The position numbers and the translations under genes are program-made. Positions 552 to 37,253 of a stretch of DNA of 64,000 nucleotides are shown here, in pieces. The DNA is from a virus: positions 29,932 to 93,931 of IMG/VR virus record IMGVR_UViG_3300044833_000114, one strand, 5' to 3'. Numbering within the stretch: position 1 is the first letter of the stretch; the number at the start of each line of letters is the position of its first letter. The notes under the pieces were generated by a model. That model was not told the DNA's origin. It searched no databases and worked only from the letters and a program-made list of their open reading frames with translations.

Positions 552-563
552 AAGGATCGTAAC

Positions 564-1345: not shown

Positions 1346-2008
1346 ATGAGTACCCTAATCGAATTCAAATACGTTGGACCAACCTACACCAACTGCGATC
1401 CCTCGAACGCACAGAAGGGCGCGCTGTCTTCGGACCAGGGTTGGCAGTCCACACTGACCAACTCCTACAAGAGCGTCTTCGGTCTCGGCACCCAAATGTA
1501 CCAGAAGCTGTCCGCCGGACTGGACAGCGTCATCTCTAAGGGCCGCGAAGCCATGGGGTACAGCCCTCAAGAATTGGCGCTGAAGAACTCTGAGGCAATC
1601 AATTCCGCAGCTGCGTCGGCGAAGTCTGTCAATCGCGCGATCGGAGCAAAGGCCGCGACGTCGAGCGCCACACCTGGTGTTGAGTCCGGCGTAGTTCAGG
1701 CTGAACGCGCAGGCGCTGACACCTCGATCATGAACAATCTTTCGAACAAGGAAGCCGACATCACAGAGTCAGGGTTTCAGGTTCAACGCGAGGGTTTCGA
1801 CAAAGCCGTCGCCGAGAAAGAGGGATCTCTGTCCGCTTCTTTCAGTCCGTCGACGTCGATGGACTCGGGCATCAATTCCGCAAACGCAGCTGTTTCGGAG
1901 CAAGCGAACGCCAACGAGCAGCAGAGTAGCTCGTGGATGGGTATGGTCGGCGGTCTCGCTGACTCTGCCGTCGGCGGACTGTCCCAAGGATTGGCGAAAA
2001 AGATTTAA
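1346..2008 (+). CDS. Putative ejection / DNA-transfer (internal virion) protein
   Basis: Ala/Ser/Gln-rich helical protein with a Gly-rich hydrophobic C-terminus (WMGMVGGLADSAVGGL); genomic position. Confidence 0.5.
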   Translation: MSTLIEFKYVGPTYTNCDPSNAQKGALSSDQGWQSTLTNSYKSVFGLGTQMYQKLSAGLDSVISKGREAMGYSPQELALKNSEAINSAAASAKSVNRAIGAKAATSSATPGVESGVVQAERAGADTSIMNNLSNKEADITESGFQVQREGFDKAVAEKEGSLSASFSPSTSMDSGINSANAAVSEQANANEQQSSSWMGMVGGLADSAVGGLSQGLAKKI

Positions 2009-2025
2009 TTCAAAGGAGAAAGGTC

Positions 2026-2442
2026 ATGGCAAACACTAAGCGCATCGAAGCCCTAGCCGACGGAATAGCATTCCTGAACAGAATGCACGACCCGGCATCG
2101 GACGCGTATCAACTACGCAATCCAGGGCTCGCAAGAGCCTACAGCTACCGGCATCTCGGAGAAGTAGACAACAAGGGTCGGAGAATTTTCACCTCGCTCA
2201 TCGGTGGTTACCGGTTCCTGATTCAGGACCTGGAGCGAAAATGTTCCGGACAGACTCGGGCTAACGGCTACAACGGAAAGCTCCACAACAACGACAAGCT
2301 TCCCGATCTGTTGAAGACCTTCAAACTCGACAATATCGAGGACGGTCACATCTTCACACTGCTCGACTTTTTGGACAAGGCATTACCTGGGCAAGGCGTA
2401 TCGTCCCAGACTCAACTCTCGTTTTTTCTTGAGGAAAACTAA
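2026..2442 (+). CDS. Virion-associated lysozyme-like / hypothetical protein
   Basis: AGGAG RBS; 'RNPGL...GRRIFTSLIGGY' resembles NNPGN-type phage muramidases. Confidence 0.3.
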   Translation: MANTKRIEALADGIAFLNRMHDPASDAYQLRNPGLARAYSYRHLGEVDNKGRRIFTSLIGGYRFLIQDLERKCSGQTRANGYNGKLHNNDKLPDLLKTFKLDNIEDGHIFTLLDFLDKALPGQGVSSQTQLSFFLEEN

Positions 2443-2444
2443 TC

Positions 2445-4502
2445 ATGGGCGACGCACAACAGCAACAAGTAGATCCCGCTTTGTCGAATGTTTTGGAGAA
2501 AGCCAACGTTCCGCTCATCACTCCGCAAGAGGACCAGGAACAAGTCGCGCGCGCCGCGCAACCTGCCGCCCAGCCCGCAGCGGCTCCTGCTGCTGGCGGT
2601 GCACCTAGTGCTGCACCCGCTCCGGCTCCAGCTGCCCCGGGGGCTGCGCAGCCAGCTCAACCCGCGGCGGCAGGAAGCGCTCCGGCCCAAGACCAGAGTC
2701 GCCTCGGAAACATAGAGGATAAGGGCAAGCACGTCCTCGGAGACATCTTCCAAACTCTCGCCGGCGGCAAGAAAAAGGAATGGCAGCAAACGCCTAACGG
2801 GCCTGTCGCCACTTACCGCGACCTCAAACCTGGTGAGATGGCTCAAGGTATTTTGGCTGCGGCGATCACCGGTCTGGCTTCCGGCTACGACCCGAAGAAC
2901 CGCGGCAAGGGTCCGGCGATGTCGTCTGCGTTCAGTGCTGGCTTCAAAGGTGAGCAAGAGCAACGCGACAAGCAGGCCGACCAGAAGGAACAAGAAGCTC
3001 AGAAACAATTCAGCAATCAGAACCTGTCCGACGAGATGGTTCTCAGAAAGCAGAGGGCTGCCACCGAGCAGCAAGAAGCGGTCCAGAGAATGTCCAAGGA
3101 CGCCCAGGAAATCCAGCAGATTCAACAGAGGGCTGCAGAAGGAAAAACCCTTTTTGATGAAGGTCAGAAAGATCGCATCATCAACCAGGTCGGAGCCTTC
3201 GAATCCAAGAAGACGGCCGGATGGACTGAGATCCCTCACCCTGTTACGCCCGGAGAAAGTTTCGGGTTTGCTGACATGAAGGAAGCGCAGGAGTACGCCA
3301 ACAAGTATGGCGCTCACCTGCTTAACCCCGGCGAGTTCAACACAGCTCCTGTCTACAATCCGGCGAGCGGCCTGTGGGTTCCGATGCAACAGCCCAAGGG
3401 CTACGACGAACTGAAGCAAGTTCGTTTCGCGAAGATGGAGAACGGGCAGCCCGTGAAGGATCCGAAAAACCCCGGCAAGTATTTGTCGGATGGTTCGAAG
3501 GACGCTACCGGACGCGCGATGACTCCGGCCGAGATGACGAACAAGGACTACGAGAGCTGGTTGACCGGCGACTCGAAAATCAGAATGGACAAAGCCACAG
3601 CTACTGAAAAGTATGCCATGGCATCCGAGCTGATTGCCAAGCAACAGAAAGACAAGATGCTGGCGCAAGCTGATTCTCGATACGCCGACGCCGGCGGTGA
3701 TCCGTTCGCTGTCAACATCAAAGACGGAACATGGACCATGACAGACGGAGATCGCAGCCGCTTGAGAAACGCGGCCGTGAGCAATCTCGCAGGAATGGAG
3801 AAGGCTCGCGAAGCAGCGCAGAAGGAACTGGAGAACGCGAGTACGGCAGATGAAAAAGCCGCAGCAAGAGCGACCTTCGAGAAGGCTGACCAGGGTTGGA
3901 ATTACTACAACACTCAGCTATCCACGTTGAACGGTCGCATCAGCAAGGCGGGTTCTTTGGCCAACTCCTACATCAGGAACTTCTCTGATGAGAACGGGTA
4001 CAGCGGAGATAAGGCCCTGGAGAAGTTTGACGAAGCTGTCAAGCGCGGGGACTACAAGACCTCGGGCATGACGCCCGAAGAACTCACGCGGACTCGAGGG
4101 AATCTTCTCTCAGCTCAATCGAAGGCCGAGGCGGCTAAGAAAAATCCACTCCCCGCAGACCCGATGGCTCAGAAAGCGATCGCACTGTTCCAGAACACAC
4201 CGAAGGAACAGATCGCCGGACACATCTCTGACGCGGTGACGAAGGGGACACTGACCGCAGACCAGGGTGACCAGCTCTACAAATACTACCAACTCACTCC
4301 TCCACCCTCTAAGTCTCAAAGCAAGGCTCAGTCGTCGCTGGAAGGTATCGGCTCCAACTACAGCATGGTGCAAATGCCTGACGGCTCTCAGCAGAAAATC
4401 GGCAACGACCTGGTGTCTGAGTTCGTTTCAAAAAGAGGCGCCAAGCTAATTGGTCAGGGAACCGACGCACGATCCAGCACGGAAGTTGAAAGAGAGAAGT
4501 AA
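2445..4502 (+). CDS. Putative ejection / internal virion protein (685 aa)
   Basis: GAGGA RBS; Ala/Pro/Gln low-complexity N-terminus; coiled coils; sits between the small and large ejection-type genes. Confidence 0.55.
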   Translation: MGDAQQQQVDPALSNVLEKANVPLITPQEDQEQVARAAQPAAQPAAAPAAGGAPSAAPAPAPAAPGAAQPAQPAAAGSAPAQDQSRLGNIEDKGKHVLGDIFQTLAGGKKKEWQQTPNGPVATYRDLKPGEMAQGILAAAITGLASGYDPKNRGKGPAMSSAFSAGFKGEQEQRDKQADQKEQEAQKQFSNQNLSDEMVLRKQRAATEQQEAVQRMSKDAQEIQQIQQRAAEGKTLFDEGQKDRIINQVGAFESKKTAGWTEIPHPVTPGESFGFADMKEAQEYANKYGAHLLNPGEFNTAPVYNPASGLWVPMQQPKGYDELKQVRFAKMENGQPVKDPKNPGKYLSDGSKDATGRAMTPAEMTNKDYESWLTGDSKIRMDKATATEKYAMASELIAKQQKDKMLAQADSRYADAGGDPFAVNIKDGTWTMTDGDRSRLRNAAVSNLAGMEKAREAAQKELENASTADEKAAARATFEKADQGWNYYNTQLSTLNGRISKAGSLANSYIRNFSDENGYSGDKALEKFDEAVKRGDYKTSGMTPEELTRTRGNLLSAQSKAEAAKKNPLPADPMAQKAIALFQNTPKEQIAGHISDAVTKGTLTADQGDQLYKYYQLTPPPSKSQSKAQSSLEGIGSNYSMVQMPDGSQQKIGNDLVSEFVSKRGAKLIGQGTDARSSTEVEREK

Positions 4503-4515
4503 AAGGACTCGATAA

Positions 4516-7500
4516 ATGTCTTCATCTAATCCTCTCGACGCTTTGACTCCTCAGAACCCGACCACCAATCTAGGGGGTCAGCCCATGCCATCGGGCAACC
4601 CTCTAGATCAGTTATCGAAGGAGAATCAAACTCCTTCGCTGCCTGCACCGACTGCGATGTCGCAAACGGCGCCGGTGAACGGGAATCCTTTGGACCAGCT
4701 TCTGACCAAACCTCAGCCGGCGGAAACACCGGTAGCGGCTACCATTGCGCCCACCTCTCTTGCAACGACAGGCGCAGTCGCAGGTAACCCGCTCGATAGT
4801 TTGAATCCGCTCGATCGGCTTTATCCGGCCGGAAGAGTGTTGACCAACAAAGAAGCTGCGTACGGAAACAGCGATCCAGAAAAGATGGAGGACGAGCCCT
4901 GGTACAGCAAGGCGTGGGAGTGGATGGACTCTCCGCTTTACGATTTGCACAAATGGGGTACGCGCACAGGTGCGGGAACATTTGAGCGCGGACTCGAGAC
5001 TGGGTTGGAGGATATCGGATCAGGATTCCTGAGTCCCCTCCAACTCGGTCTAACAATCGCCACGTTCGGCGGCAGCACCGTGGAAGCCGCGGGGATCGGA
5101 GCCCTGCGGTCTATCGGTGTTTCTGAAATCGCTGCGCCGATCGTGGCTCGCGGGGCGAAGGCCTTGATGACCGCAGGTTTCAGCGCACAGATGATCGGCG
5201 GGATGCTGCAGCAGTCCCCGCAGCTCCTGGACGCGCTGAAAGACGGCGACACAGAGAACGCAACCAGGCTTGCGACCAACATCGCGGCGTCCGGACTATT
5301 CCTGACGCAAGGCTTGAAGCACGGCTATGAAGACGTCAACGCCGTCAAGAACTACGTCAAGGGGAAGAACCTCACCACGACAGAGCGCTTGGCTCTGGTG
5401 ACGGAACTCTCCGGCAATTACGACGCTGCGAAAAGCGCAGGCACGGACTACGCGCGCAGCCGGCAGGAAGACATCGTCGCGCAGCTGAAGGCTGCCGGGG
5501 CGTTCGGCAACGACACCACCGAAGCTGGCATGCGTCACTTCATTACTCAGGGCGGCGACCTCGAACGCATCGCCAAGATGCGCGGCATCGCGGACGGCAC
5601 CATCAAGCCTCGGCCTCTGACTGCGGAAGAATCGGCTCAGCAGGACCAGGCGGCTGAACTGCGAGACTGGGCCGGCAAGAGCCACGACATCACGAAGAGA
5701 AACGACGGATCTCTGCAGACCTTCTATCTCGACGACAGCGCGCCGGGTACACACAAGCTGGGCCAGACGTTGTCTGCGTCCGGAGACAAGGACGACGCTC
5801 ACTACGTTCAGATGAAGAATCCTTTCTCTGTGCGGACGGAAGAGTCGTTGCAGAAATACATCGAGCAGGCTGGCGGCGAGGAAGCAGCGAAGAAGAAGTT
5901 AGCTGACGCCGGTTATGATGGCATCGTCTACAAGACGGCGGAAGACGAACCGAAACTCATCACCTTCGGGAACGATCAGTATCGCCCGGTGCCGGAGTTC
6001 AAAGCCGCGCACGATGCTGCGTGGAATCGCGAGCATGTGTACTACGCTGTCGACAAGAAGAATTTGGAGCATGTTCTAAATCAAGGTATCGGAAAGAATC
6101 CAAAGAAAGCAAACGTTGTGTACTCCGCTACTCCTGAGGAAGCTCTCAAGTCTGCGACACTACCAGACAGCGGAAAGAAGAGCGACCTCACCGTTCTATC
6201 AGTGCCACGTCAAGAAGTCGAAGCCGGCGCTCGCGAGACGAACGCCGCCATCCACGGAAAGCTTAAGCGCGGTGCGATCGGCCCTGTCGACGTCGCCGGG
6301 AAATCTCCTGTAGAGGGAGAGGTTGCTTACAGAGTGCGGGACGTCGGGGAGGAAGGAGTTCCTAGCGAGAGCCATTCTCAGGCCACGATGTCACTCTCCG
6401 AAGCCAAGGAAAGAATTTTCGACAGCCGAGGAAAAATCCAAGGCAAGCCTCAGGAGATCGTCGCCATTCCTTTGGGTGGATTAGAGTACGACAGGAAACC
6501 CGGCCCCAACGGAAACGACTGGGTCAAGTTCAAAAAGGATGTTCCGGAATCCAACGTAAAGCAGTTGTCAGATCTGGGACCTAAGCCTGTTGCGGATGAC
6601 ATGCTGATCACCGAGAAGCGGCACATGCCAGGTCACCTCCTGGAAATGGAGACCGACAAGGAAGGAAACCCCAAAGCGACCGGCCGCTCTTTCCCGCTGC
6701 GCCCTCTCGGCGCCGAAGATATGCCAGGTGACAACTCTCGTTTCAACAACAGCTACACCGAAGAAGAGAAGCAGAAATATCTCGCCGGTCTCGACGCAGC
6801 GCAGAAGCTCACGCCTGAACAGCAGCAGATCGCCCAGACGATCCGGAAGATCTACGACAACTCTTTCCAGCGCGCATGGGAGAAGGGTATGGTCCGCGAC
6901 TGGATCCAGTCCTATCACCCGCAAGCATGGGCCAGCGATCCCGGCGGGATGTGGAAGTGGTTGTTCAACAAGGACACCGAGAAGGTCACCAACGGCGCCC
7001 TGAACGACCTCCGTCACCAGACCAACGACGGGAGCTTCGACACCAACATCAACTCCGCGCGCCACCGCGCATTCAACACGGAGTTCCAGGGCATCATGGC
7101 AGGCGAGAAGTTCAAGACCGACGACCTGTCGATGCACCTGTTCAATCACCTCAAGGCCGTCGAGCACGCCGCAGCTGCGCGAGACTACCTGAACAATCTC
7201 CGCAAGCAAGACACCAAGGCTACCGACGGCAGGCCGGCAGTAGTCCTGCAAGGCAAGGCGCGAGTAATCGGCGGAGAAGAGAATCCAGCTGTCGCTATCA
7301 GCCCCGCGTCTGCGCAGTCTATCCGCATCACTCCAGAGAAGATCGAGATGATGCGTGTACCGGATCCCAAGACTGGCGTGAGCCCTCTTGAAGACGGCTT
7401 GGAGAAAGGCATCATTCAGAAACTCCCGTGGACCTCTGCTGACGAAAAGGGCAACAACGTTCCGGCGTACGCCTACACGTCTGACGGCTACGTCCTGATG

Positions 7501-12130: not shown

Positions 12131-12339
12131 AGGGTGAATCAAGGGTTAATCCACCCGTTTGCTTTTGTTTCGCTTCTTGCAGATAAGTGGCGCCGATTCA
12201 ACGGGTTAGTTTTTGTAAAACTGATAGTTATTCAGATTCAGAGTCTGGAGTCCTACCAATTGGACGACCTCCCAAACTGTATGATTCTACGCTGCTTGCG
12301 TCTGTTTTCCCAGTCCTGATTGAGGGTGAACAGGGTGAA
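12131..12339. other. attP: attP site: tRNA-Gln-derived core flanked by arm-type repeats
   Basis: AGGGTGAA/AGGGTTAA pairs at 12131 and 12142 and at 12323 and 12332 flank the tRNA fragment, directly downstream of int. Confidence 0.75.
12233..12274 (-). tRNA. tRNA-Gln(CTG) 5' fragment (acceptor 5' strand, D arm, anticodon arm), not a complete tRNA
   Basis: TGGGAGG-TC-GTCC AATTGGTA GGAC-T-CCAGA CT CTG AA TCTG; no T arm or 3' acceptor strand follows. Confidence 0.8.
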
Positions 12340-13402
12340 GCAGAGATGGAATCGAGTTGAGAATTCGCTTCCTGTACTCTGGTCTGAGATGAGTGTATAG
12401 CTTGACCATTTCATCGCTACCGTGCCCAATCCAAGCGCGAATCGTTTCGATTGGCGTGTTGCATTCGACAAGATAGCTGACCCTGCCGTGCCGGAAAGCG
12501 TGCGTCCCAGATTGCGGGATGCCCAGTTTTCTCAGCAGCGGATACAGAACCCGGTTGAGAATTCTCGGATGTTTGAACGTGGTTCCGTGTTTCGTTTGAA
12601 ACACGAAGCCGAGTGTTCTACCGTTCAAATGTTTTTTGATCATCTCACCCAGGCCGATCTGGATATCGATTGTCCGATAAGCTTTCAGGCTCTTCGGACT
12701 TTGAACCTTGCCGCGCCGTACCGACCGTCGAACATGGATCAGTAAGCGTTGCAGATCGACATCCTCGACGCGCAACCCGTACGCTTCCCCTGAGCGCAAT
12801 CCTGTTTCAGTAAAGACTGCGAACAAAGTCTTGTACGGCTCTCTCACGGCATCAACGATCATCTGCATCTGCTCCGGAGAATGACAAGGATGCTGCCGCC
12901 TCGGTTCCAAGGCGGACGGAAAGTGGATCAGCGTCTTATCAAATTTTCTTCCGAGAACCATCTGCAGCGTCTTCGCGATCCCGCGTTGGGTGTACGGCGA
13001 TAACCTCGACAGTGATCCCAACCACTCGTTCACCGACTCTTCCCCGATCAAATCAACCGGATGCTTCCCCCACTGCGGGAGAAGATACGTGTTGATGTGC
13101 CAGTTCATGGTGTCCTGAGTGCCTAGTTTCTGCCGCACGAGATACATCTGCGTCCACCTGATTACGCGTTTTTCGAATAACTCGCTGGACGGGATAACAT
13201 ACGACGGCTCGTTTAAGCCTTCGGATGCTATGACCGATTTAAGTTTCCGGCGAGCTTCTGATTTGGTCATTTCCGAGACAGGTCCTAGGACGACCGCTTT
13301 GTTGACGCGCCGATCCTGCCCTGGCACATCCACAAGATAGCGACCACGATATGACCCGCTACGGACTTCAACTGAACCGTTCTGCCCGATTCTACGAGAC
13401 AA
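12287..13402 (-). CDS. int: Tyrosine integrase
   Basis: GLRSGE, SPKS, HAFRH, WIGH and LYTH catalytic motifs; N-terminal arm-binding segment 'GSVEVRSGSYRGRY'; likely TTG start at 13402 (listed ORF extends to 13642). Confidence 0.92.
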   Translation of the reverse strand: MSRRIGQNGSVEVRSGSYRGRYLVDVPGQDRRVNKAVVLGPVSEMTKSEARRKLKSVIASEGLNEPSYVIPSSELFEKRVIRWTQMYLVRQKLGTQDTMNWHINTYLLPQWGKHPVDLIGEESVNEWLGSLSRLSPYTQRGIAKTLQMVLGRKFDKTLIHFPSALEPRRQHPCHSPEQMQMIVDAVREPYKTLFAVFTETGLRSGEAYGLRVEDVDLQRLLIHVRRSVRRGKVQSPKSLKAYRTIDIQIGLGEMIKKHLNGRTLGFVFQTKHGTTFKHPRILNRVLYPLLRKLGIPQSGTHAFRHGRVSYLVECNTPIETIRAWIGHGSDEMVKLYTHLRPEYRKRILNSIPSLLHPVHPQSGLGKQTQAA

Positions 13403-13472
13403 CGATTTACCCCGCTTTCTCGTTGAATCGGCGTCGGCTATCACGGTATCAGGTTTAGGAAATTGGATCAAA

Positions 13473-13721
13473 CTAGGCGTCCAGACGTTCCAGAATTCGG
13501 TCGACGATGGCGTAACAATTGACTTCTCCGACTTCCGCGTAGCTACAAATTCCCTCGCGAACAATGTCCACCAGTTCTTCTCGGAGATCTTCCTCGGTGG
13601 TGTCTTCCTCTTCCGGTTCCTCCTCCCAGGGGTGGTATCCAAACTGCGTCCGGTTGTTGTGGACGGAGTTCCGGGGCGACATGCGACACTTCTTGCACGG
13701 ATACGCGGAGACGCTCATCAA
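13473..13721 (-). CDS. Small Cys-containing acidic hypothetical protein
   Basis: Overlaps the stop of the upstream ATPase; EEEPEEEDTTEED tract. Confidence 0.5.
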   Translation of the reverse strand: MMSVSAYPCKKCRMSPRNSVHNNRTQFGYHPWEEEPEEEDTTEEDLREELVDIVREGICSYAEVGEVNCYAIVDRILERLDA

Positions 13722-27259: not shown

Positions 27260-28000
27260 TCACGCTGCCACCTCCATGATTTGAATTAACTGCGGTTGCT
27301 GCACCAGGTGCGTCGTCGGCTGCACGAAGCCGGAGCAGTCTTTCCTTGCGCGTCCCTTTGCGCGCAGACCGATGATGCGGCTGTGTGGGTCCGTCTTGAA
27401 ACGAAGGTCGTGCAAGTCTCCGTCGTAGACTTTGTACCCTTGCCACGTCTTCGGAAGCTGATGTCCTCGCTTGACGCCAAACACTACTGCAACGTTGACT
27501 CCGTGCATTAGTGCGTCCATAGCGTCGTCGATGTTCGTCTCTGATAGTGAGAACGTCAAATGGTAGTTAGGCAATGTCCGTTCCCATGGTCGCGGGTGTT
27601 TTGTGTAGTCGTAAAGCTGAACGTGTGGAAACATCGGCGCAATAGTGTGAGCTAAGTACGGAAGATCAGACGTTCCGTTGAGTCGCACGCAAGGCTTTAG
27701 GCCGTCACGTTTCGCCTTACGGACGAGTGCTTCAATCTCCGAACACAATTGTAGCACGAACGCCGAACGATCTTGAATCAAAAACTTCGTCTTCCGAATG
27801 CGCGCTCGGTTGATCATCGGAAACGCAGCCGCCCTGCCTGCAGTGAACAGGCAAGCCGCCTTGCATCCCGCTGACGCCGAAGCACATGTGTTGGTGACGC
27901 CGGACGAATCAGCTGGAGCGAGATAAAGGATCCCTGTTAGATAACCCTTCTTCTCACCCTTGATCGTCTTGGCGTCGTGGCTTACGGATAGTAGTTTCAT
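27260..28000 (-). CDS. GP88-like protein (radical-SAM-like Cys motif)
   Basis: 'LYLAPA...CASASAGCKAACL..AGR...RLNGTSD...YDYTK...DGD.HD.RF...GLRAKG.A'. Confidence 0.7.
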   Translation of the reverse strand: MKLLSVSHDAKTIKGEKKGYLTGILYLAPADSSGVTNTCASASAGCKAACLFTAGRAAAFPMINRARIRKTKFLIQDRSAFVLQLCSEIEALVRKAKRDGLKPCVRLNGTSDLPYLAHTIAPMFPHVQLYDYTKHPRPWERTLPNYHLTFSLSETNIDDAMDALMHGVNVAVVFGVKRGHQLPKTWQGYKVYDGDLHDLRFKTDPHSRIIGLRAKGRARKDCSGFVQPTTHLVQQPQLIQIMEVAA

Positions 28001-28317: not shown

Positions 28318-28403
28318 GTTTTCTCCTTTTCTTGGGGCACACAAGTGCATCCCGCACCACGGCCTTGTTAATTAACAGGGCCGTGGTATGTGAGGCGCTT
28401 TGC

Positions 28404-28598
28404 TTACTCTTTTTCTTGTACGGGTGTGACGACTGCGATCAGTCCGGGTCGGCGCATCTCCCCGAACTTTCTAGCTGCAGCCTGGTCCATTGCGCGGATG
28501 ATGGTGTAGGTTTGTCCGTCCTTCTCGTCTCGCACTAGGTTCTCGGGGCGCACGCTGCCCCGATACCACTCGATGCGGTACCGCCGGCGGTCAGACAT
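28404..28598 (-). CDS. Hypothetical protein
   Basis: Ends at a structured element. Confidence 0.5.
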   Translation of the reverse strand: MSDRRRYRIEWYRGSVRPENLVRDEKDGQTYTIIRAMDQAAARKFGEMRRPGLIAVVTPVQEKE

Positions 28599-28851
28599 TT
28601 CGCTCATCTTGTTCGTAGGCGAGCTGGTCCAGATAATCCTCTGAACCTTTCAGCGTGTGTTTCTTCACGTTGTTCAAGACTTCCTCCAGCTCCTCGACCG
28701 AGATGACGTTGGCCGCGATGCAGTATTCGCGCAAGTCGAGAATACGCACCTCGGCTGTCTCTGCGTTCTTGGCGAACACGGTATCATGAAACCACTGCTG
28801 CTCGTCGTTGTCGTAGCTGATGACCAAGTAGCGGTTCAGTTTTTTAGGCAT
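28591..28851 (-). CDS. Hypothetical protein
   Basis: GGAG RBS. Confidence 0.55.
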   Translation of the reverse strand: MPKKLNRYLVISYDNDEQQWFHDTVFAKNAETAEVRILDLREYCIAANVISVEELEEVLNNVKKHTLKGSEDYLDQLAYEQDERNV

Positions 28852-29461
28852 TGTGTTCTGCTCCGTATTTCTGCGCGGCTGTTTCGCCTTGCGCGGTTAG
28901 CTTTGCTATGTGTGCTGCTTCGCTCTTCGCGGCTGCTGTGGCTTCTTCCCTGCAGTACTTGATATCGCCGATGAAACCCCAGCACGAATCCAGGTGCGAG
29001 TCTTCTGGGCTCTCGATGATGTAGCCGTAGACTTCGCCGGTGAGATAGCTGTCGTACTCGGATACCTCAGCCACCAGCAAGTCGATCGCTTCCTGACGCC
29101 GCTTCTTGGTGACGTTCTTGCACATCCAGTTCTCACGGATATCTTTCTTCTCCGCGTAGATGAATCCAACCTGACCGCTGTCCCACGGACAAGAGAACGG
29201 GGAAGTACGCATCGTGATGCCGCTGTGGTCGTAGAGATAAAGCGGCAGAGCTACGCCGCCCTCTTTCTCAATGCGCTCCACGAACTCTTTGGCTTCTTCC
29301 ACGCTCATGCTGTGCTTGTCGCCCAGGTCGTAGCGACGGTGAAAGCAAACCATGTGGCCGAAGTTGTCGTGGTCGGTGCGCGGATTGAATGGTTCAGAGT
29401 CCTGCAAGATGCGAACGGTTAGCCCGTCCACCTCGAAGCGCTCTACGTCATCGTTGTGCAT
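28844..29461 (-). CDS. Conserved phage/plasmid hypothetical protein (HRRYDLGD...LYDHSG...WDSGQVG)
   Basis: AAGGAG RBS directly after the element at 29476-29532. Confidence 0.65.
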   Translation of the reverse strand: MHNDDVERFEVDGLTVRILQDSEPFNPRTDHDNFGHMVCFHRRYDLGDKHSMSVEEAKEFVERIEKEGGVALPLYLYDHSGITMRTSPFSCPWDSGQVGFIYAEKKDIRENWMCKNVTKKRRQEAIDLLVAEVSEYDSYLTGEVYGYIIESPEDSHLDSCWGFIGDIKYCREEATAAAKSEAAHIAKLTAQGETAAQKYGAEHNA

Positions 29462-29687
29462 ACGTTCTCCTTTTATTGGGCGAGTGATGCCCGACAGCGC
29501 CACCATCACTGATGGCGCTGGCATGCTCACTCCCTGTCTATGTTGAACCACTGCTCTCCCAGCTCTTCTTTCTGCTCGGTGCTTAAGGCTTCGTTTAAGA
29601 CTTGAAACAAGGTCTCTTCCGGCAGCACGTTAATAACCTGCCGAAGTAAATCTGCGGTTTGCTCTGTTGTCAGCTTTCCGATATCGA

Positions 29688-30002
29688 TCATGCTTCCTCC
29701 CTTTTTGCGTAAGATGGTGCGAAGAACTCGAACAAATCTGCGTCGTGTTCGCGCAGGAATTCCCACTCGCGGTCAGACAAGAGCAAATCATCTGCTGGAG
29801 TTGATTCGAGATTGTCATAATCGAGAAGGTCTATATCGACGCCTCCCTCATTGATTGCTATATTGGCGACACCTCCGTTGATCGTCACAAGCAAATACGG
29901 CTTAAATGCTTGCGCGATCTTCTTGCTTGCCGTCCTGAGTCGTCCGTGCTCCAAAGCGCTCGCGGCACTCCGGAGTAAACGTGCTTGTTCTGCTCTGGTC
30001 AT
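29688..30002 (-). CDS. Hypothetical protein
   Basis: GGAGG RBS. Confidence 0.5.
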   Translation of the reverse strand: MTRAEQARLLRSAASALEHGRLRTASKKIAQAFKPYLLVTINGGVANIAINEGGVDIDLLDYDNLESTPADDLLLSDREWEFLREHDADLFEFFAPSYAKREEA

Positions 30003-30183
30003 TTCGCCTCCAATGATTTGTTGTGCAGCTTGACGATGTGCTTTGCGACTTTCTCGGATATAGCTACTCCGGTGACTTCTTCTTCGCCGTCTTCGCTTGT
30101 GATGATGAACATCCCGGCGTGTAGACCGTAGGTCTTCTCGTCATCTGCAAGCTGCCATACCGCCCATTTCTGCTTGAGTATGT

Positions 30184-30444
30184 TCATGACACCTTCCTTT
30201 CGTTCTGCGCTACGTGGCGCGGGCAGTACTTGCTTCCTTGGGTTGCGTCTTCGATGCACAACCCGGCGTCGCAGCACGAAGGTCCGTAGCTTATTTCTGC
30301 TCCCGCCAAAATATCCGAAAGCTTGTGGTAGGCGTCGCGCGCCGGTCCCTCCGACTCTTCGCCGGAGAACTCACGGTCGATGAACTGCGTGTACTCCGCG
30401 CGCTTCTCGTTGACTTCAATCGTGATCGTGATCTTTGCACTCAT
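30184..30444 (-). CDS. Hypothetical protein
   Basis: GGGAGG RBS; ATGA overlap. Confidence 0.5.
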   Translation of the reverse strand: MSAKITITIEVNEKRAEYTQFIDREFSGEESEGPARDAYHKLSDILAGAEISYGPSCCDAGLCIEDATQGSKYCPRHVAQNERKVS

Positions 30445-30765
30445 GCTGCCTCCCTTTCCTGCTTCTTAAACTCAAGTTTCTGCTTTGGTTTTGGTGTCGG
30501 CCTCACTGCGCGGCCGAAAGAGAGTACGAAACCTACAGACACAACGAACCACGCTGAGAAAACTCCTGCTGCTATCATCAGGCCTCCCTTTCTATGAACG
30601 GCTGCACGCGGTTTGCTTCGCGCTGCCATCCCTCAAACTCTTGAATCTCCAGCTCCAGCTCTGTTTCTGTTTGTATTTCTGTTTGAGTCTCTTGCATGTT
30701 TCTCCTTTGCTTGGGAAGTGAATCCCGACGCGCACCCTCTCAGCGAAGGTGCGCGGCATGTTCAC

Positions 30766-31695
30766 TCACGCTGCGACTGCTGCCAGCTCCGGTTCTTGTT
30801 GCGGTTGCTCTACGGGCTTCTCGAACTTCACGTCTCGGATGTGATCGCAGGCTTTCTGCGCCGCGCTGATGGATTGCATCAGCATCTTCTTGTTGTTGTC
30901 GTTGAGCTTGAGCTTCTCAAGCCAGTGCTTGATGTAGGCCGCACTGTTCTCGACGACCGCAGGGGCGATGCCGACGACACCGCACAGCATCGAAGCGCCG
31001 AACTCTGCGACCAGCTCCTCAGCGCTGTACTTGTCGCCGCCAAAGCCATCACCGTTCGTGATGCCTTCGCGACTCAGCCTCTTGAGTGCGCCGGTTGAGT
31101 GCACCATCTCGTGGAACAAGGTGCTGTAGTATTCGCGTTGCTCCTTGAATGCTCCGCGAACCGGCGTGCCGATCAGGTCTTCGGACGGACGGTAGAAGGC
31201 TGCACCGGCGTCCACCAGCTTCGGCTTATCCGGGTATCCATCCCAGATTGCTTGCGCCGCCGGCAGATCCTCGATTGGTGCCTGGGGTTTGTTGAGCCCG
31301 AGTTCTTCGGCTAGCTCCGGGTTGCACTGGGTGATGTTGAAGACGTGCCAGGTCTTCCAGTACCCGGCGCGCGTGGTGCCGTCCTCGCCCGTCTCTTCGT
31401 TCCTGCTCTTGCGGTCATAAACTGCGTACTTGCAGATCGCAGTTCCCTTCTCACCCTTCATGACGTGACCGCCCAGGTCCTTGGCCTGCTTCGCAGTGAG
31501 CCACCAGGGAGAAGCCTTCTGCTGCAACATGAGCAGGAAGACATTCATTCCGCGGTACTCTTTCTGACTGATGAGATTCTTGGGAAGGCCTTGACTGACC
31601 CAGGGCTTGCGCCACGGGACAGTGCCTGCCTCAAGCTGCGATATGATCTGGTCTGCCGCTTGCTGATACGGCGACACTTTCTTCTGGTCTTCCAT
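30766..31695 (-). CDS. ardC: ArdC-family antirestriction / ssDNA-binding metalloprotease-like protein
   Basis: 'G.VPWRKPW...N..S...YRGMN...W.T.KQA..LGG.V.KGEKG', 'AFYRPSED.I..P', 'YYSTLFHEMVHSTG', 'Y..EELVAE.GA', 'SAAYI..WL'. Confidence 0.9.
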   Translation of the reverse strand: MEDQKKVSPYQQAADQIISQLEAGTVPWRKPWVSQGLPKNLISQKEYRGMNVFLLMLQQKASPWWLTAKQAKDLGGHVMKGEKGTAICKYAVYDRKSRNEETGEDGTTRAGYWKTWHVFNITQCNPELAEELGLNKPQAPIEDLPAAQAIWDGYPDKPKLVDAGAAFYRPSEDLIGTPVRGAFKEQREYYSTLFHEMVHSTGALKRLSREGITNGDGFGGDKYSAEELVAEFGASMLCGVVGIAPAVVENSAAYIKHWLEKLKLNDNNKKMLMQSISAAQKACDHIRDVKFEKPVEQPQQEPELAAVAA

Positions 31696-31751
31696 AGTCA
31701 CCTCGATTGGGAATGAGTCCCGGTCGCCCTACCAAGGCAGGGCGAACGCGT

Positions 31752-32042
31752 TCACTCCGTAGGTATGTCCAGCTCGAATTCAAACGGATTGAAGTAATGC
31801 GGACGATGTATCTCGTCGCCATCCCCGTCATAAATTGTGTTGTCGAAGTTCTCAATGAACTTCTCGACGTCGGCGGGCAGATCAACTCGCACTTTGAGAG
31901 CCGTGACGGTCGCGTATGAGCCTTCAACGTGCACGATTGTATTCAGAGCTTCACTCATGCACAGAGCTATCGGGCAGTGATTTGGGTCGTCCTGTATTCC
32001 TCTCGCGATGTGGTCTTTCGTAACTTCAAATTTACGCAGCAT
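31752..32042 (-). CDS. Hypothetical protein flanked by two near-identical structured elements
   Basis: AGGAGG RBS. Confidence 0.6.
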   Translation of the reverse strand: MLRKFEVTKDHIARGIQDDPNHCPIALCMSEALNTIVHVEGSYATVTALKVRVDLPADVEKFIENFDNTIYDGDGDEIHRPHYFNPFEFELDIPTE

Positions 32043-32099
32043 TCGTCCTCCTGTTTGGGAATGAGTCCCGGCGAGCCCACCGTGATGGGCTCGACGCGT

Positions 32100-32291
32100 T
32101 CACTCTGCGAAAGTAACGAACGTTATTTCGAAGTACTCATCCTGCGGCCCCGACTCATTGTCCATGCCTCGTTCCGGTTCGTACTCCTCTTTCCAGTACT
32201 CTTGCAACTTGTCTTCTGTTGGCTCTTCGCGAAACAGAGCGAAGTCTTCTCCGTGTCTGTGGTGATAAATCCCCAACCAATGACCCTTCAT
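32100..32291 (-). CDS. Small acidic hypothetical protein
   Basis: AGGAGG RBS; ATGA overlap. Confidence 0.55.
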   Translation of the reverse strand: MKGHWLGIYHHRHGEDFALFREEPTEDKLQEYWKEEYEPERGMDNESGPQDEYFEITFVTFAE

Positions 32292-32488
32292 GCGACCTCC
32301 TGTTTTCCTGCGTAGTGGATTGTTGGCTTGCTAACGCTGGGTGGTGCGCCTTTCTTGTTGAGCACGTAGCCGTCGAAGTGCATGTCCCGCTCAATCTTCA
32401 AACCAAACGGGCCTTTGACAGACTGAAGCTCGGACAGATTGAAGTAGCCGAGTTCCTTCTCGTGGCCTTCGACCAGACCGAAGAACAT
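32288..32488 (-). CDS. DUF2958-family protein (apparently N-terminally truncated)
   Basis: 'FFGLV.G.E.ELGYF.L.EL....GPFGL.IERD.HF'. Confidence 0.7.
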   Translation of the reverse strand: MFFGLVEGHEKELGYFNLSELQSVKGPFGLKIERDMHFDGYVLNKKGAPPSVSKPTIHYAGKQEVA

Positions 32489-32700
32489 AAACTCAGTCCA
32501 TGTCTCCTTCGGGCATTCGGTGCAGTCGAAGCATGCATGCTCGGGGCAGACCAGCGAACCCTCGACTGCGTACCAGGATCACAGCGCCCTCCTTGTGTGG
32601 CCGCATCTTAGGCAACGCCACCACTTACCGAGTACGTTGGCTAACTCAAACTTGCGTTGCTTCTGACAATGTGTGCAGGTCAGCCAGCGAATGTCGGGAG

Positions 32701-32961
32701 TCATAACACTCCCGCTGACTTCGCCACTTGTTCCTCAAAGTTGCCGTGGTCCAGCCATCGCGACACAAACTTCGTGACGCAAGATTGTCCACAGACATCC
32801 GCATCGAATGCAGGATTAGTTCCGTTAGAATCTCCCGCTGCCATAATGCGAAGTTCGACGTCGCCACTCTTCAACGTAACCACGACGTGAATCCTCCACC
32901 AGTGGTTCGCCTCTTTCTTCGGCGCACCGCAACAATCGCAAACAACTACTTTGTTCATCAT
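32701..32961 (-). CDS. Zn-binding hypothetical protein
   Basis: CDCCG...HWW...DVCGQSC motifs. Confidence 0.55.
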   Translation of the reverse strand: MMNKVVVCDCCGAPKKEANHWWRIHVVVTLKSGDVELRIMAAGDSNGTNPAFDADVCGQSCVTKFVSRWLDHGNFEEQVAKSAGVL

Positions 32962-33212
32962 TGGTTGCCTCCAAAGTCGTACTCGAATGCAGCGTCGTGA
33001 CCTAGCGTGCGCAGGCCCACCACCGTCATGCTGCCGTCTTTGGCGCGGTACTCTGAAGTGTCCGAATAGCGGAATTGTTGCTTAGGCCAATACTCTGAAT
33101 CGTGCTTCCGTTGAACCCTTGGCCGCACAGGCTGTAGGGAGATGACTGTGTCCAGGGTGCCGTCATCTTCAAGACACACGTCGAACAGTACGCCGTTTGC
33201 GCGTATTCTCAT
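32958..33212 (-). CDS. Hypothetical protein
   Basis: Follows the element at 33224-33281. Confidence 0.5.
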   Translation of the reverse strand: MRIRANGVLFDVCLEDDGTLDTVISLQPVRPRVQRKHDSEYWPKQQFRYSDTSEYRAKDGSMTVVGLRTLGHDAAFEYDFGGNQ

Positions 33213-33278
33213 CGTCACGCCTCTTGGGGGAAAGTATCCCGCAAGCCCCCAAGCTAAGCCGGAGGGCTTACGCGCTAC

Positions 33279-33881
33279 TTACTCCACAGCTTTCTTCCAG
33301 ATGCTGAACGAGATGTCGAACTGACCTACGCCGTCGATGTTGAAGAGCAAACGCTTGTGACCTGCGTCGTGCAAGCGCTTGTATATCGCTTTAGGGTTGT
33401 CATTCTGTCCTGGGTGAAAGCCGCTCTCGAAGTCTCCTTCGAGCTTGATGTAGCCGTAATCGGCTGGGCTGATGTGGTCGTTGAGTGCACGGCGTGGGTT
33501 GTCTTCGATGCTTTCCAGATACTCTTCTATCGGGCAGCAGTCCACACAGAACAGCTCGCAGTCGTTCATGATGAAGTAACTGGGCTGCCATCCCCAGCAG
33601 TTAGGGCTCATGCGAATAGCCTTGTTGCACTCCTGACAGTTAGACCATTCGTCCGACCACTCGATCTCGTAGCCGTAAGCTTCCAGCAAACGAGTCGCAT
33701 CACCGGAGAACTTGTTCCAGTTGCCGAACAGAATTCCCTTCTTCGGGTCTTTGTAGCCTGGTTCCGCGTACTCGTGGGACCAGCCTAGGTTCTCGATCTC
33801 GCTTTCTCTTGCTCGCAAATCGTATGGTCCGCAGGATGGCGGACGACACAGCGACTTGCGAAGAATGTACTCTGGAGTCAT
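33279..33881 (-). CDS. Conserved phage hypothetical protein (CxxC pairs, GFHPGQNDNP)
   Basis: AAGGA RBS after the element at 33897-33959. Confidence 0.6.
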   Translation of the reverse strand: MTPEYILRKSLCRPPSCGPYDLRARESEIENLGWSHEYAEPGYKDPKKGILFGNWNKFSGDATRLLEAYGYEIEWSDEWSNCQECNKAIRMSPNCWGWQPSYFIMNDCELFCVDCCPIEEYLESIEDNPRRALNDHISPADYGYIKLEGDFESGFHPGQNDNPKAIYKRLHDAGHKRLLFNIDGVGQFDISFSIWKKAVE

Positions 33882-33956
33882 AGCAGTCCTTTCGCGTTGG
33901 GAGAATGTCCCGCAGCGCCCACACTCTCGGATGGGCGCTACGTGCTCTTCTCTCAC

Positions 33957-34223
33957 TTATCCGTTCGGATTCATTGCCTTCTCGCCCCAACCTCTGGGGT
34001 GAGGTTCTTCGTGGTCTACATATTCGTCGTCGCGTTCCGCTTCTATCTCGGCGCACCAGTTGCATGTATCGCCCTGCTCAACATCAGATCCGCATTCTCT
34101 GCACTCAAAGAAGCGCACCCAGTCTTGGCGCTCCTCAACCCAAGTCTTCTTGCTGTTGGGGCAGCCTGTCTCGTGACAGAACACGCCGTTTATCATCAGC
34201 GCTTCGCATTGGTCGCAGCGCAT
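33957..34223 (-). CDS. Cys-rich hypothetical protein (CDQC...INGVFCHETGCPN)
   Basis: GGAGG RBS. Confidence 0.6.
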   Translation of the reverse strand: MRCDQCEALMINGVFCHETGCPNSKKTWVEERQDWVRFFECRECGSDVEQGDTCNWCAEIEAERDDEYVDHEEPHPRGWGEKAMNPNG

Positions 34224-35151
34224 GAACACACCTCCAGTACTTCGCGCATCCCAGATGTTAGACTGGGATGCACACTGTGCTGGATTATCCGTTCTCCCTA
34301 CGATGTGCTGACGATACGATTCAGAGAGCACACGGTTCAATAGTAGGGAGGTAACTGTCTTTCTAGTACTGGCGTTTACCTGGCACTTCGTACAGTGTGC
34401 GGCGCTGGACGCCCTAGGCCACCTTCAGAGTTTCGTGGCGCTCTTGTGTGCCGTACACGCGGTCGTGTTCACGCTTTTCAACAGCTTGTATCAGGCGTTC
34501 AGCAGTCTCAACGGCGACCATTGTGGAATGGTTTTCTGCTGAATAAACCAATGCTGCCATCAAACAAGTTAGAGTTTTCTTGTCCATCTATCGGTCCTCG
34601 TCGAAGTGTTGCCGCAACGCTGGGCAAACGTTCAATTGGTCCGCACTGAAGTACGCGGAAACGTCTTCCGGCGTCCTTGGACCTAGGATGAACTCGTCAC
34701 TCTGGGTAAGATTCTCTTCGACGTAATTGAACTCCTGATTGAAAGCCTGCTCCGTGCTTTCGATTGCACGCCGATGACGCTCAGCGCTAGCTGGATCATT
34801 TCGCATCTGGTTCTCCCTTTGTTGGATTGAGTCCGCGTGAGCCTGACTCGGCAGGCACACTCCGGCGAAGGAATGCACCTGATGTGGCAGGCTGTGTTGG
34901 CGAGATTACTGGCGAGGTTCTGGCGAGGAAACTGGTGCTGGTGTCTCTGTGCTATCCCAACCGAATGGGACATACACGTCGCTGTTCTCGACACCGTTGG
35001 CGTTATAGTCTGCAACGCGCATGGTGCCACGCGCATCTCGGATGTAAGTTCGGTCTGAGGCTTTGATTTCAGTCTGCATAGTTTCTCCTGTTGGGCGAGT
35101 GGCCCGTGTAGCCCACCTGAATGGGCTACCCATGCTACTCGCGCTACTGAC

Positions 35152-35349
35152 TTACTTTCCGCAGCTGACGATGAGCGTGTCGCCCACTTTGGTAACGGTG
35201 GGATCTCCGCCGTTCTGGCAGCTTACGCCTACTTCGCTCACACTCAAGCGGGACAGCTTGTAGATGTATTCCACTTTGTCCTTGGCATAAGCTCCCAAGG
35301 CAAAGACCGCTAGCAGTGAAGCAACAAACAGAGTCTTTCGCTTGTGCAT
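35152..35349 (-). CDS. Small secreted protein with a signal peptide
   Basis: Basic N-terminus, hydrophobic core, AYA cleavage site; bounded by two elements. Confidence 0.55.
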   Translation of the reverse strand: MHKRKTLFVASLLAVFALGAYAKDKVEYIYKLSRLSVSEVGVSCQNGGDPTVTKVGDTLIVSCGK

Positions 35350-35408
35350 GTGTCACCCTTGACGCTAGTTGCGTCGTCCTGCCCTCCGTGAAGAGCAGGC
35401 CGCCGAAA

Positions 35409-35582
35409 CTAGCGACAATCGCCGAAAGTCTTTGCGTACAGCTTTGCGTACAGGACGATGCGCTCAAACTTGGCGAACCCATCCTCGACACTCTCAGGCA
35501 CCGCTATAGCTTGCGTGCGGTAAGCCTCTGCGATGTCCCGGAACATGTGGCGTGCCGGCCTAACCGTGGTCTCTATACCCAT
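35409..35582 (-). CDS. Hypothetical protein
   Basis: GGGAG RBS; bounded by two elements. Confidence 0.5.
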   Translation of the reverse strand: MGIETTVRPARHMFRDIAEAYRTQAIAVPESVEDGFAKFERIVLYAKLYAKTFGDCR

Positions 35583-35643
35583 GTTGTCTCCCTTGGGCGA
35601 GTGGCCCATCGAAGGCACCGTAGTGCCCTCGCCGCGCTACTCG

Positions 35644-35820
35644 CTACTCCAGGTACTCCTGATGCAGTTCTTCATCTAAACGCGCTAGAGTGTTCAGCGC
35701 GTCCGCGTCATGAGCCCAACATTGAGCGTGGAGCAGCATCCTGCGCGCTAGTCTCAGCAAGGTGTAATGGCTCACTTCACCTGTGCGAGACAGTTCCAGA
35801 GCTGTCAGCAATACTTGCAT
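35644..35820 (-). CDS. Hypothetical protein
   Basis: GGAGG RBS; bounded by two elements. Confidence 0.5.
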   Translation of the reverse strand: MQVLLTALELSRTGEVSHYTLLRLARRMLLHAQCWAHDADALNTLARLDEELHQEYLE

Positions 35821-35887
35821 GGATTCCTCCCTTCGTCGCGTAAGTAGACTCAACCTGGCGCTCCGCAGAGCGCTAGGCAAAGGCTAC

Positions 35888-36070
35888 TCAATCAATCCAA
35901 GCGAAGTATTGCTCATCTACGCGCACAGGGTTGGGCACCATGCGTAGACTCACACCAACGGCAAGGTGCGCTATGAGCACTAGTTCAGCGTCGTTGGTGA
36001 TGACTGTCTTACCTTGACGCATCTGATACAGCTTAACCTTGGCTTCGTTCAGAACGGATACGGCTTGCAT
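35888..36070 (-). CDS. Hypothetical protein
   Basis: AGGAGG RBS; bounded by two elements. Confidence 0.55.
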   Translation of the reverse strand: MQAVSVLNEAKVKLYQMRQGKTVITNDAELVLIAHLAVGVSLRMVPNPVRVDEQYFAWID

Positions 36071-36167
36071 AGACGGATTCCTCCTGTGGACGGCGCTGGG
36101 TGCCCCGATTGGTCACTAAGTGACCGCAGCTATCCCCTGCTCTCATTCAGGGGATAGCGACTGGCAC

Positions 36168-36290
36168 TTACAAACTGGCGATAGCGGCATGCATGAAAAT
36201 TTGAGCAAGAAAGCGGCGCAACGTGGGATTAGACTCAAACTGTGGCATTAACCTCATGTACTCATGGTGACAAGCGAGACGAGCAGACAT
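36168..36290 (-). CDS. 40-aa hypothetical protein (MSARLACHHEY...; absent from the ORF track)
   Basis: AGGAGG RBS; fills the gap between two elements exactly. Confidence 0.5.
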   Translation of the reverse strand: MSARLACHHEYMRLMPQFESNPTLRRFLAQIFMHAAIASL

Positions 36291-36361
36291 AGTTCTACCT
36301 CCTAGGATTGAGCCAGTAAGCGCTCGTCATACCCACTCTTTCGAGTGGGCATGGTGTGCGG

Positions 36362-36670
36362 TTACTTGACAGACTTGAGATACTCCGCGGCCGCATCAGA
36401 CTGTTCGTCGTTCTTGAAGAACAGCTTGCCGTAGTTGGCGCTAGCGTGGACCATCAGCTTAGGCATGTTCCTGGCTACGATGAGCCATTGCGTAAACGTC
36501 AGGGTAACTGGGAAGTGTCCAAGGCCATACATGGACAGAGAACCCTTCTCGGTTACTTTGATAGCCTGTCCCTTCTGTTCCGCTTTGCGCTCTAGCTGCG
36601 CAATGCGTGCCAGCAATTCTTCACGTGTCGGTTCAGCTGAAACCTGTGGTGCAGTCTGTGTCGTAGTCAT
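36362..36670 (-). CDS. First gene of the leftward block; conserved phage protein (KVTEKGSLSMYGLGHFPVTL)
   Basis: GAGAGG RBS; motif seen in phage early genes. Confidence 0.65.
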   Translation of the reverse strand: MTTTQTAPQVSAEPTREELLARIAQLERKAEQKGQAIKVTEKGSLSMYGLGHFPVTLTFTQWLIVARNMPKLMVHASANYGKLFFKNDEQSDAAAEYLKSVK

Positions 36671-37253
36671 AATGCCTCTCTTGTTTTGGATTTGAAGTCT
36701 AAAGACTTCCCCTAGACCACGCGCTAGTTAGAACGCGTAGGCTAGAGACTGTCTTTCGACAGCACAGGGCAAGAGTAATCACCCTAGTCACCCGCCGTGT
36801 GAGACACGGCCCGTAAAGCACACCTATAGCGACGGCCCGACAGCGCGGGAAGCTATAGACACACCTCAAGCGGTACCCTTACCGCATGGAGACTTGCTGT
36901 CACGCGCGATGGGCACACTTCGACCCACGCGTGATTCAGACTTGGCTCGGGAGAGACGTTTACCCTACCCCACGACTCCAGTGGCCCAACCTCAAGGCAT
37001 ACCCTGAGTGCTGACTCCCCATCCGCGGTATGCGCGATGGCGTCATCAAGTGCCTTGATTCAATCCACTGGCCATATCGTGGGCTACTCTATCGCAGTAA
37101 CCCGTTGCCTTTGTTCGCTCTTCCTGCGAACCGATTGTCTCTCGATTGCCGGTCTTTCTTGCGAACGCAGTTACTAATGCATTCGCGGAGCCAAACGCGG
37201 AATCGCGTCGAATTTTGAGTTCGAACGTTGAGTTCAAACGACTTTTCGAACGA

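Follow-up and report, generated by a model that had tools for sequence, protein, structure and literature searches.

A repeated two-state RNA element punctuates the early-gene block of an uncultured phage whose 93.9-kb genome is IMG/VR virus record IMGVR_UViG_3300044833_000114, rated complete. The DNA analysed here, which we call the window, is the 64,000-nucleotide stretch spanning bases 29932-93931 of that record. Its genes run leftward, on the minus strand, from about 37 kb, and the first 8.5 kb of this leftward operon (36.7-28.3 kb) consists of about 28 small genes. The gaps between non-overlapping genes in this block each fold as one long imperfect hairpin (-27 to -36 kcal/mol), and the 3' side of that hairpin can pair again, differently, as a small second hairpin. 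Both folds covary, they belong to the mRNA-sense strand, they stand between genes, and they are conserved in related contigs. The elements are cis-acting RNA signals of the polycistronic early mRNA. We tentatively propose that they are RNase III-type cut sites, both of whose products are capped by a hairpin.

What does the element look like? In the most regular copies a 6-bp lower stem (a/a') is followed by a mismatch, 2 bp, a mismatch, 2 bp and a mismatch, and then by a 9-bp upper stem (b/b') closed by a 4-nt loop; after the 3' arm come CCCAA, a short spacer, the Shine-Dalgarno (SD) sequence and ATG. Across elements the lower stem ranges from 5 to 8 bp and the upper stem from 9 to 12 bp, and the middle is weak, being built of two 2-bp G-C steps with flanking 1x1 purine mismatches (three mismatches). 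Several of the apical loops are UNCG- or GNRA-type tetraloops (UACG, GAAA, GUGA, GCAA and UUCG). From helix base to apical loop there are 21-25 positions, with a median of 22, in 27 of 27 aligned copies, in agreement with the duplex of about 20-25 bp described in a first-pass annotation made from the sequence letters. This helix length is two turns of double-stranded RNA, the size of an RNase III substrate. The four examples quoted in that annotation (at 30768, 29532, 35411 and 36366) reproduce the minus-strand letters exactly, and each of them folds within the energy range given above.

The pairing is supported by covariation. The structural alignments were all taken from a covariance model because MAFFT misaligned the copies. 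In the resulting set of 27 copies and 19 model pairs, whose model-fitted alignment leans towards the structure of that model, standard pairs fill 95% of the pair cells against a mean of 66% and a maximum of 71% in 1000 shuffles, and the covariation score is 0.75 against a shuffled mean of 0.22 and maximum of 0.28. No shuffle reaches either observed value. The 17 copies from relatives that were usable for covariation, none of which had a part in model building, are 94.6% paired and give the same covariation result. Covariation also beats the shuffles for a/a', the middle region and b/b' each taken alone, and in the upper stem 99.6% of the cells are paired and a single column can show as many as six pair types. 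Finally, G-U pairs outnumber A-C pairs by 43 to 5 overall and by 30 to 0 in the upper stem. Since a G-U pair is a mismatch on the opposite strand, the fold belongs to the mRNA-sense strand, which is what the first-pass annotation had suspected from the wobble pairs and the tetraloops.

A second fold involves the four or five bases that follow the upper stem, usually GGGA or GGGC, which we call c. In the long hairpin c pairs with the 5' middle region; its alternative partner, c', consists of the bases after a', usually UCCC or GCCC. At least eight complementary c/c' pairs are seen: GGGA/UCCC, GGGC/GCCC, GGGG/CCCC, GACGC/GCGUC, GAGC/GCUC, GAAGC/GCUUC, GGGCU/AGCUC and GGUCAC/GUGACC. Together with the results for a/a', the middle and b/b', these pairs bear out the original observation that all three pairings covary. 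The copy at 35359-35413 is direct evidence that both pairings are under selection, because there c has changed and both of its partners carry the matching changes. Folding of the 3' fragment by itself predicts the c/c' hairpin in 10 of 10 canonical window copies, and for 18 of all 27 copies its stability surpasses that of 95% of shuffles. It starts 1-2 nt past the upper stem, and AA, the SD and the start codon all stay single-stranded. Because a' occupies the c/c' loop without a linker, c/c' and a/a' are mutually exclusive. The long hairpin is favoured over c/c' by well over 10 kcal/mol, so c/c' can form only once the 5' arm has been removed or occupied. For a bistable RNA, one segment covarying with each of two alternative partners is evidence of unusual clarity, and the bistability makes processing and ribosome-driven switching directly testable against each other.

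Copies in the window were collected with two covariance models. The first, R1, built from only two window copies, recovers seven further copies on the same strand (E 2.5e-8 to 0.08), and the second, R2, adds the copy at 36308-36367. A search with R2 of the rest of the window and of the other 30 kb of the genome gave no convincing match outside the early block. We discarded a hand-written motif scanner as far too permissive (271 and 231 matches on the two strands). The census on the minus (mRNA) strand comprises 10 canonical copies, 3 clear variants and 2 doubtful ones; the first-pass count of about 15 is therefore slightly generous, taking in the doubtful pair along with the others. The copies are as follows.

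36308..36367, minus strand: canonical, GAAA tetraloop, c/c' GAGC/GCTC (R2 24.2 bits, E 5e-4, not a seed copy; fold).
35593..35644, minus strand: canonical, UACG loop, c/c' GGGC/GCCC (seed of R1; fold).
35359..35413, minus strand: canonical, c is GACGC, with the 5' middle region and c' changed to match (R1 E 4e-4; alignment; mini-hairpin fold).
35091..35142, minus strand: canonical, lower part identical to that of 35593-35644, upper stem unrelated (R1; alignment).
33897..33952, minus strand: canonical (R1 E 8.8e-6).
33225..33282, minus strand: canonical (R1 E 0.08; R2 40.8 bits).
32055..32105, minus strand: canonical (R1 E 2.5e-8).
31707..31757, minus strand: canonical, just upstream of the ArdC-like gene, a position also occupied in the related contigs L096 and L097 (R1; R2 in relatives).
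30711..30767, minus strand: canonical, downstream of the ArdC-like gene (R1, R2).
29476..29534, minus strand: canonical, GUGA loop (R1 E 4.3e-5).
36109..36170, minus strand: clear variant, 6-bp c/c' GGTCAC/GTGACC overlapping a' (fold and sequence; below model threshold).
35836..35890, minus strand: clear variant, UGCG loop, weak c/c' (fold; R2 10.8 bits).
28332..28409, minus strand: clear variant, degenerate, with a long upper stem, extended c/c' and weak a/a' (fold).
34827..34911, minus strand: doubtful, a long hairpin of another kind, with a 3-bp c/c'-like hairpin after it (R2 11.5 bits; fold).
36692..36756, minus strand: doubtful, three-hairpin leader before the first gene (fold; no model match).

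Two pairs of these elements, 35593-35644 with 35091-35142 and 32055-32105 with 31707-31757, match exactly in their lower parts (12-13 nt of the 5' side and 16-17 nt of the 3' side) but have upper stems that are wholly different yet compensated. This suggests that the frame of the paired elements was duplicated or gene-converted while their upper stems were selected for dissimilarity, perhaps because dissimilar upper stems avoid mispairing or deletion.

The element is shared with relatives. R2 detects it in four contigs of related uncultured phages, always between genes and on the coding strand, with at least 11 copies in L097, 2 in L096, 4 in L257 and 2 in L256. L097 and L096 encode an ArdC that is 61-62% identical to the window protein; L257, which lies on the same 92-kb contig as L003, encodes a DNA polymerase, a helicase and a GP88 protein that are 68%, 57% and 64% identical; and the L256 helicase is 69% identical. 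In the comparison with these four contigs the element is conserved across relatives at 57-70% protein identity; the closest relative is the contig encoding P0002, an ArdC that is 89% identical. Some sequence conservation across the four contigs goes beyond the pairing itself, in the 5' middle region, in the CGGG on the 3' arm and at the top of the upper stem. Elsewhere, other phage and metagenome loci amounting to about 2.4 Mb gave R2 nothing below E 0.1, under filters with which L097, run as a positive control, was detected. Similarly, R1 and R2 found nothing in 95 loci carrying relatives of the DNA polymerase, of a 205-residue protein (28844-29461) or of a 200-residue protein (33279-33881), and R2 found nothing in 99 loci with distant ArdC homologues. 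Because these searches of other loci came back empty, we conclude that the element family is restricted to one lineage. In IMG/VR, the ArdC-like protein alone as query returned nothing close, and a 19-nt degenerate 3' motif returned no match.

The elements persist in these relatives while the genes between them are almost wholly different. One difference amounts to exactly an element plus one gene, window 28409-27997, which lies between two genes that are adjacent in L097. Such differences are what would be expected of recombination sites acting on DNA, in the manner of attC or PeSL, and marking off single genes as mobile cassettes, and the two pairs of neighbouring elements with identical lower parts would fit as well. 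We nevertheless consider this explanation, the third of the models offered at first pass and the one that has fared worst, highly improbable. The excess of G-U over A-C pairs is strand-specific and, with the GNRA and UNCG tetraloops, points to RNA; the integrase is not of the integron type; and no integron integrase, promoter or terminator halves, or GTTRRRY-type cores are visible. Recombination at the repeats may be a side effect.

Both kinds of DNA site were also compared with the elements directly. Like integron attC sites, the elements are imperfect hairpins with mismatches between inner and outer paired boxes and lie beside single genes; unlike them, they come without IntI and without a conserved R'/R'' core, and carry RNA-strand-specific signatures. 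The sole integrase (12287-13564) scores 39.3 bits on TIGR02249, for which the cut-off is 265, and the core sites RYYYAAC/GTTRRRY are not seen in the aligned copies, whose outer strands read RAGTRN/NYACTY. Likewise, the PeSLs (promoter-early stem-loops) of T4-type phages (PMC2839356, PMC4122927) are repeated motifs lying between the genes of a hyperplastic block; those genes are small, are of unknown function and vary from one relative to the next. PeSLs, however, consist of a sigma-70 promoter and a terminator and act by DNA recombination, whereas the elements have neither promoter nor T-run and are constrained on the RNA strand. A PeSL cassette was rejected: the 12 kb examined have just 3 promoter-like sites, a number that shuffled sequence exceeds, and no element coincides with any of them.

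The same persistence of the elements could be read without recombination and without cleavage, if they served as 3'-exonuclease barriers of a REP-like kind and as insulators that shield each ribosome site from the coding sequence upstream, which would turn the small genes between them into portable units of expression. Very stable folds, an SD that is always open and an A-rich spacer after the element would all suit such a role. The conserved weak middle and the constant two-turn length would go unexplained, however, as would the selection for c/c', which is impossible while the long hairpin is intact. We therefore regard uncleaved punctuation as decidedly unlikely.

The placement of the elements among genes is regular. 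Among its 28 junctions the block has about 13 at which genes overlap by 1-4 nt or abut, 13 with an element and 2-3 of another kind; as first noted, then, most non-overlapping junctions have one. The next start codon lies 10-18 nt beyond the element. In about 24 of 29 copies the upstream stop codon falls within -8 to +5 nt of the first lower-stem base, consistent with the initial description of strand a as containing or adjoining that stop; two copies in relatives are without a nearby upstream stop. Neither fold of the window copies pairs the SD or the start codon, and the sequence just beyond the element is an A-rich spacer. In six of the upstream genes GAG comes immediately before the stop codon (stops at 35646, 33281, 32102, 31754, 29529 and 28406), and in four of these it is GGAG. 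In the long fold those bases are partners of c' or a', and the element thus limits the choice of final codon in the gene before it.

Some copies in the relatives treat the SD differently. A sub-variant in L097 (593, 868, 1193 and 1456) is without c/c' and has the first bases of the SD, GGAGGA, inside the lower stem, and the L257 copy at 2251 likewise has part of its SD in the lower stem. The lower stem of this sub-variant, UCCGGUG/UACCGGA, overlaps the SD GGAGGA. A second sub-variant has c/c' GAAGC/GCUUC; the two were noted in L097 593-1507 and 1732-2201.

Could a ribosome operate the switch? In a termination-coupled translation device, the ribosome terminating on the upstream gene would melt strand a and the middle, the freed 3' arm would fold into c/c', and c/c' would compact the spacer or, in some variants, free the SD, so that the next gene would be translated only, or better, after the previous one. 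The tie to the stop codon speaks for this, as does the fact that the block junctions are nearly all either 1-4 nt overlaps, the classic form of coupling, or elements. So do the five copies in relatives that place part of the SD in the lower stem, and a segment with two covarying partners is expected of a switch. Against it, all window copies leave the SD and start codon free in either fold, so that nothing is switched at the ribosome site, and a 9-12 bp upper stem and a constant two-turn length would be unnecessary. Moreover, genuine T7 RNase III sites also have stop codons in or beside the lower stem, and two relatives' copies lack a nearby upstream stop. We think coupling of this kind doubtful. 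An extended version, to which we give no greater credence, is a ribosome-operated two-state RNA: the terminating ribosome would flip the 3' arm into c/c', shorten a 60-nt spacer to a few nucleotides and pass the ribosome or 30S to the next start, and the element would thereby substitute for a stop/start overlap and let unrelated genes be plugged in as self-contained cassettes. The translational switch proposed at first pass is thus not supported for the window copies, whose SD is free in both folds; a variant in L097 does bury part of its SD. As a simple SD-occluding coupling hairpin the element was rejected, since the window copies' SD is unpaired and the feature is confined to the five L097 and L257 copies named above.

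Our preferred reading, RNase III-type processing, draws on a comparison with phage T7, whose early intergenic regions we folded over positions 500-7000. The early sites there, which we take to be the RNase III sites named R0.3, R0.5, R1, R1.1 and R1.3 (Dunn and Studier 1983), fold into hairpins of about 50 nt in which an internal loop separates a lower stem of 6-8 bp from an upper stem of 9-10 bp. The phage elements share this layout: they are intercistronic, lie in an early operon, measure about 50 nt and two helical turns, end in a small loop, and have a lower stem, a middle interrupted at the same position, a 9-12 bp upper stem, and a stop codon in or beside the lower stem. It is this match of architecture that leads us to prefer an RNase III-type reading. 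At the T7 0.4/0.5 junction the lower stem contains the UGA that ends gene 0.4, and for this reason a stop codon in the stem is no argument against a processing site. The elements differ from the T7 sites in having a ladder of 1x1 mismatches and 2-bp steps where T7 has one asymmetric loop, in being followed by a covarying c/c' hairpin, and in numbering 10-13 copies per operon as opposed to 5, with a cleavage that is predicted. We know of no T7 counterpart of the alternative c/c' hairpin. Bacillus RNase III sites occur in the early mRNAs of phages SP82 and SPO1, where repeated conserved hairpins between early genes are cut by a host double-strand RNase; host and phage lineage differ there, and the likeness is by description only.

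We propose the following sequence of events. In the full transcript, each element would form one two-turn hairpin. Host RNase III, or an equivalent double-strand RNase, would then cut on the 3' arm, within the weak middle and next to c. This would give the upstream mRNA a terminus closed off against 3' exonucleases by the stable upper hairpin, and the downstream mRNA a 5' end made of the released 3' arm, which would refold as the c/c' mini-hairpin. This hairpin would cap the new 5' end while AA, the Shine-Dalgarno sequence and the start codon stay open; in the variant that buries the SD, the same cut would free it. A cut beside c giving two capped products would explain why both folds are under selection, and the weak middle, as modelled, sits where an RNase III-like enzyme would be expected to cut. 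Internal loops limit RNase III to a single cut that leaves a protective 3' hairpin (PMC1540722), and in the pattern of in vivo cuts the two positions between the cuts are usually paired and G-C rich (PMC6212723), a pattern that the 2-bp G-C steps of the element middle resemble. Of the models offered at first pass, RNase III-type sites with a refolding 5' hairpin give the best fit, in view of the two turns, the weak middle, the T7 layout and a c/c' hairpin that begins 1-2 nt after the upper stem.

Several points weigh against this proposal. We infer the cleavage, the enzyme and the stabilising effect alike. The likeness to the T7 sites is architectural and not a matter of homology: when R2 was run against T7 500-7000, the best score was 9.9 bits, at a place that is not a site, and sequence or structure homology was not found. 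A 15-nt apex string is identical in an L097 element (3949-3963) and in the T7 gene 1/1.1 hairpin (L342 5367-5381), and occurs at only those two places among 342 loci; this identity is suggestive and speaks for the proposal, but we noticed it after the fact. A bulge-helix-bulge motif lets RNase III bind without cutting (PMC1540722), and the mismatch/2-bp/mismatch middle of the element could be of this bind-without-cut kind. Finally, the tie to the stop codon, the division of junctions into overlaps and elements, and the SD-burying variant of L097 would also fit a translational role.

If cut-and-refold is correct, one 55-nt signal separates cistrons, caps the 3' end of the upstream message and the 5' end of the downstream one, and keeps the ribosome site open. 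T7-style mRNA processing would then extend to a lineage of uncultured phages, and the uniform expression of a fast-changing block of small genes of unknown function would be explained. The parts of the element would be useful for synthetic operons, and the family could be added to Rfam.

The element family is not listed in Rfam, in keeping with the first impression that the motif was undescribed. Rfam 15 gave no match in the window at the gathering score; at an E-value threshold the sole match was a chance one to a miRNA precursor (26.5 bits against a gathering score of 90), and in the relatives Rfam found a tRNA only. No ribozymes were found at the equivalent junctions in the relatives, and neither tRNAs nor Rfam families were found in the window when both were searched for. 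Intrinsic terminators were likewise rejected: none of the 11 terminator-like sites coincides with an element, and the hairpins are followed by NCGGG and not by a T-run, which removes the ordinary-terminator alternative that the first-pass annotation had set against its own proposal.

Sequence conservation beyond pairing would be expected if the element were an operator for a phage or host RNA-binding protein, such as a translational repressor or a dedicated endoribonuclease, that recognises the mismatch ladder and the top of the upper stem. We judge this improbable. Domain searches of the larger proteins of the early block detected no RNA-processing, RNA-binding or nuclease domains, and much of the conserved sequence is explained by the need of c for two partners.

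The rest of the genome offers some context. The gene for the ArdC-like anti-restriction protein (30766-31695) lies inside the early block, and that for a GP88-family protein (27260-28000) lies just beyond its lower end; elsewhere the genome encodes a family A DNA polymerase, a primase-helicase, a helicase and a tyrosine integrase. The last (12287-13564, minus strand) is of a generic type and occurs alongside the phage's own DNA polymerase and primase-helicase; the phage may be temperate. No close GenBank phage was found, megablast of the early block against GenBank phages giving no match, and a scan of genome contigs found no close prophage (best identity 45%).

Three further features were noted in passing. 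Before the first early gene, the leader at 36692-36800 (minus strand) contains three separate hairpins, the last of which resembles an extended c/c' hairpin. In L257, 18-nt tandem repeats (GGCAACGCGCGGGTGTNC-like) run through 1700-2060 within a 253-codon ORF, which would, from its sequence, encode a protein of six-residue repeats. Finally, a 190-nt gap at 34223-34416 (minus strand) carries no element and is very strongly structured (-76.9 kcal/mol for 202 nt), with a 9-nt long-range inverted repeat whose halves lie about 125 nt apart; it could be an internal promoter, a regulatory region or a small RNA.

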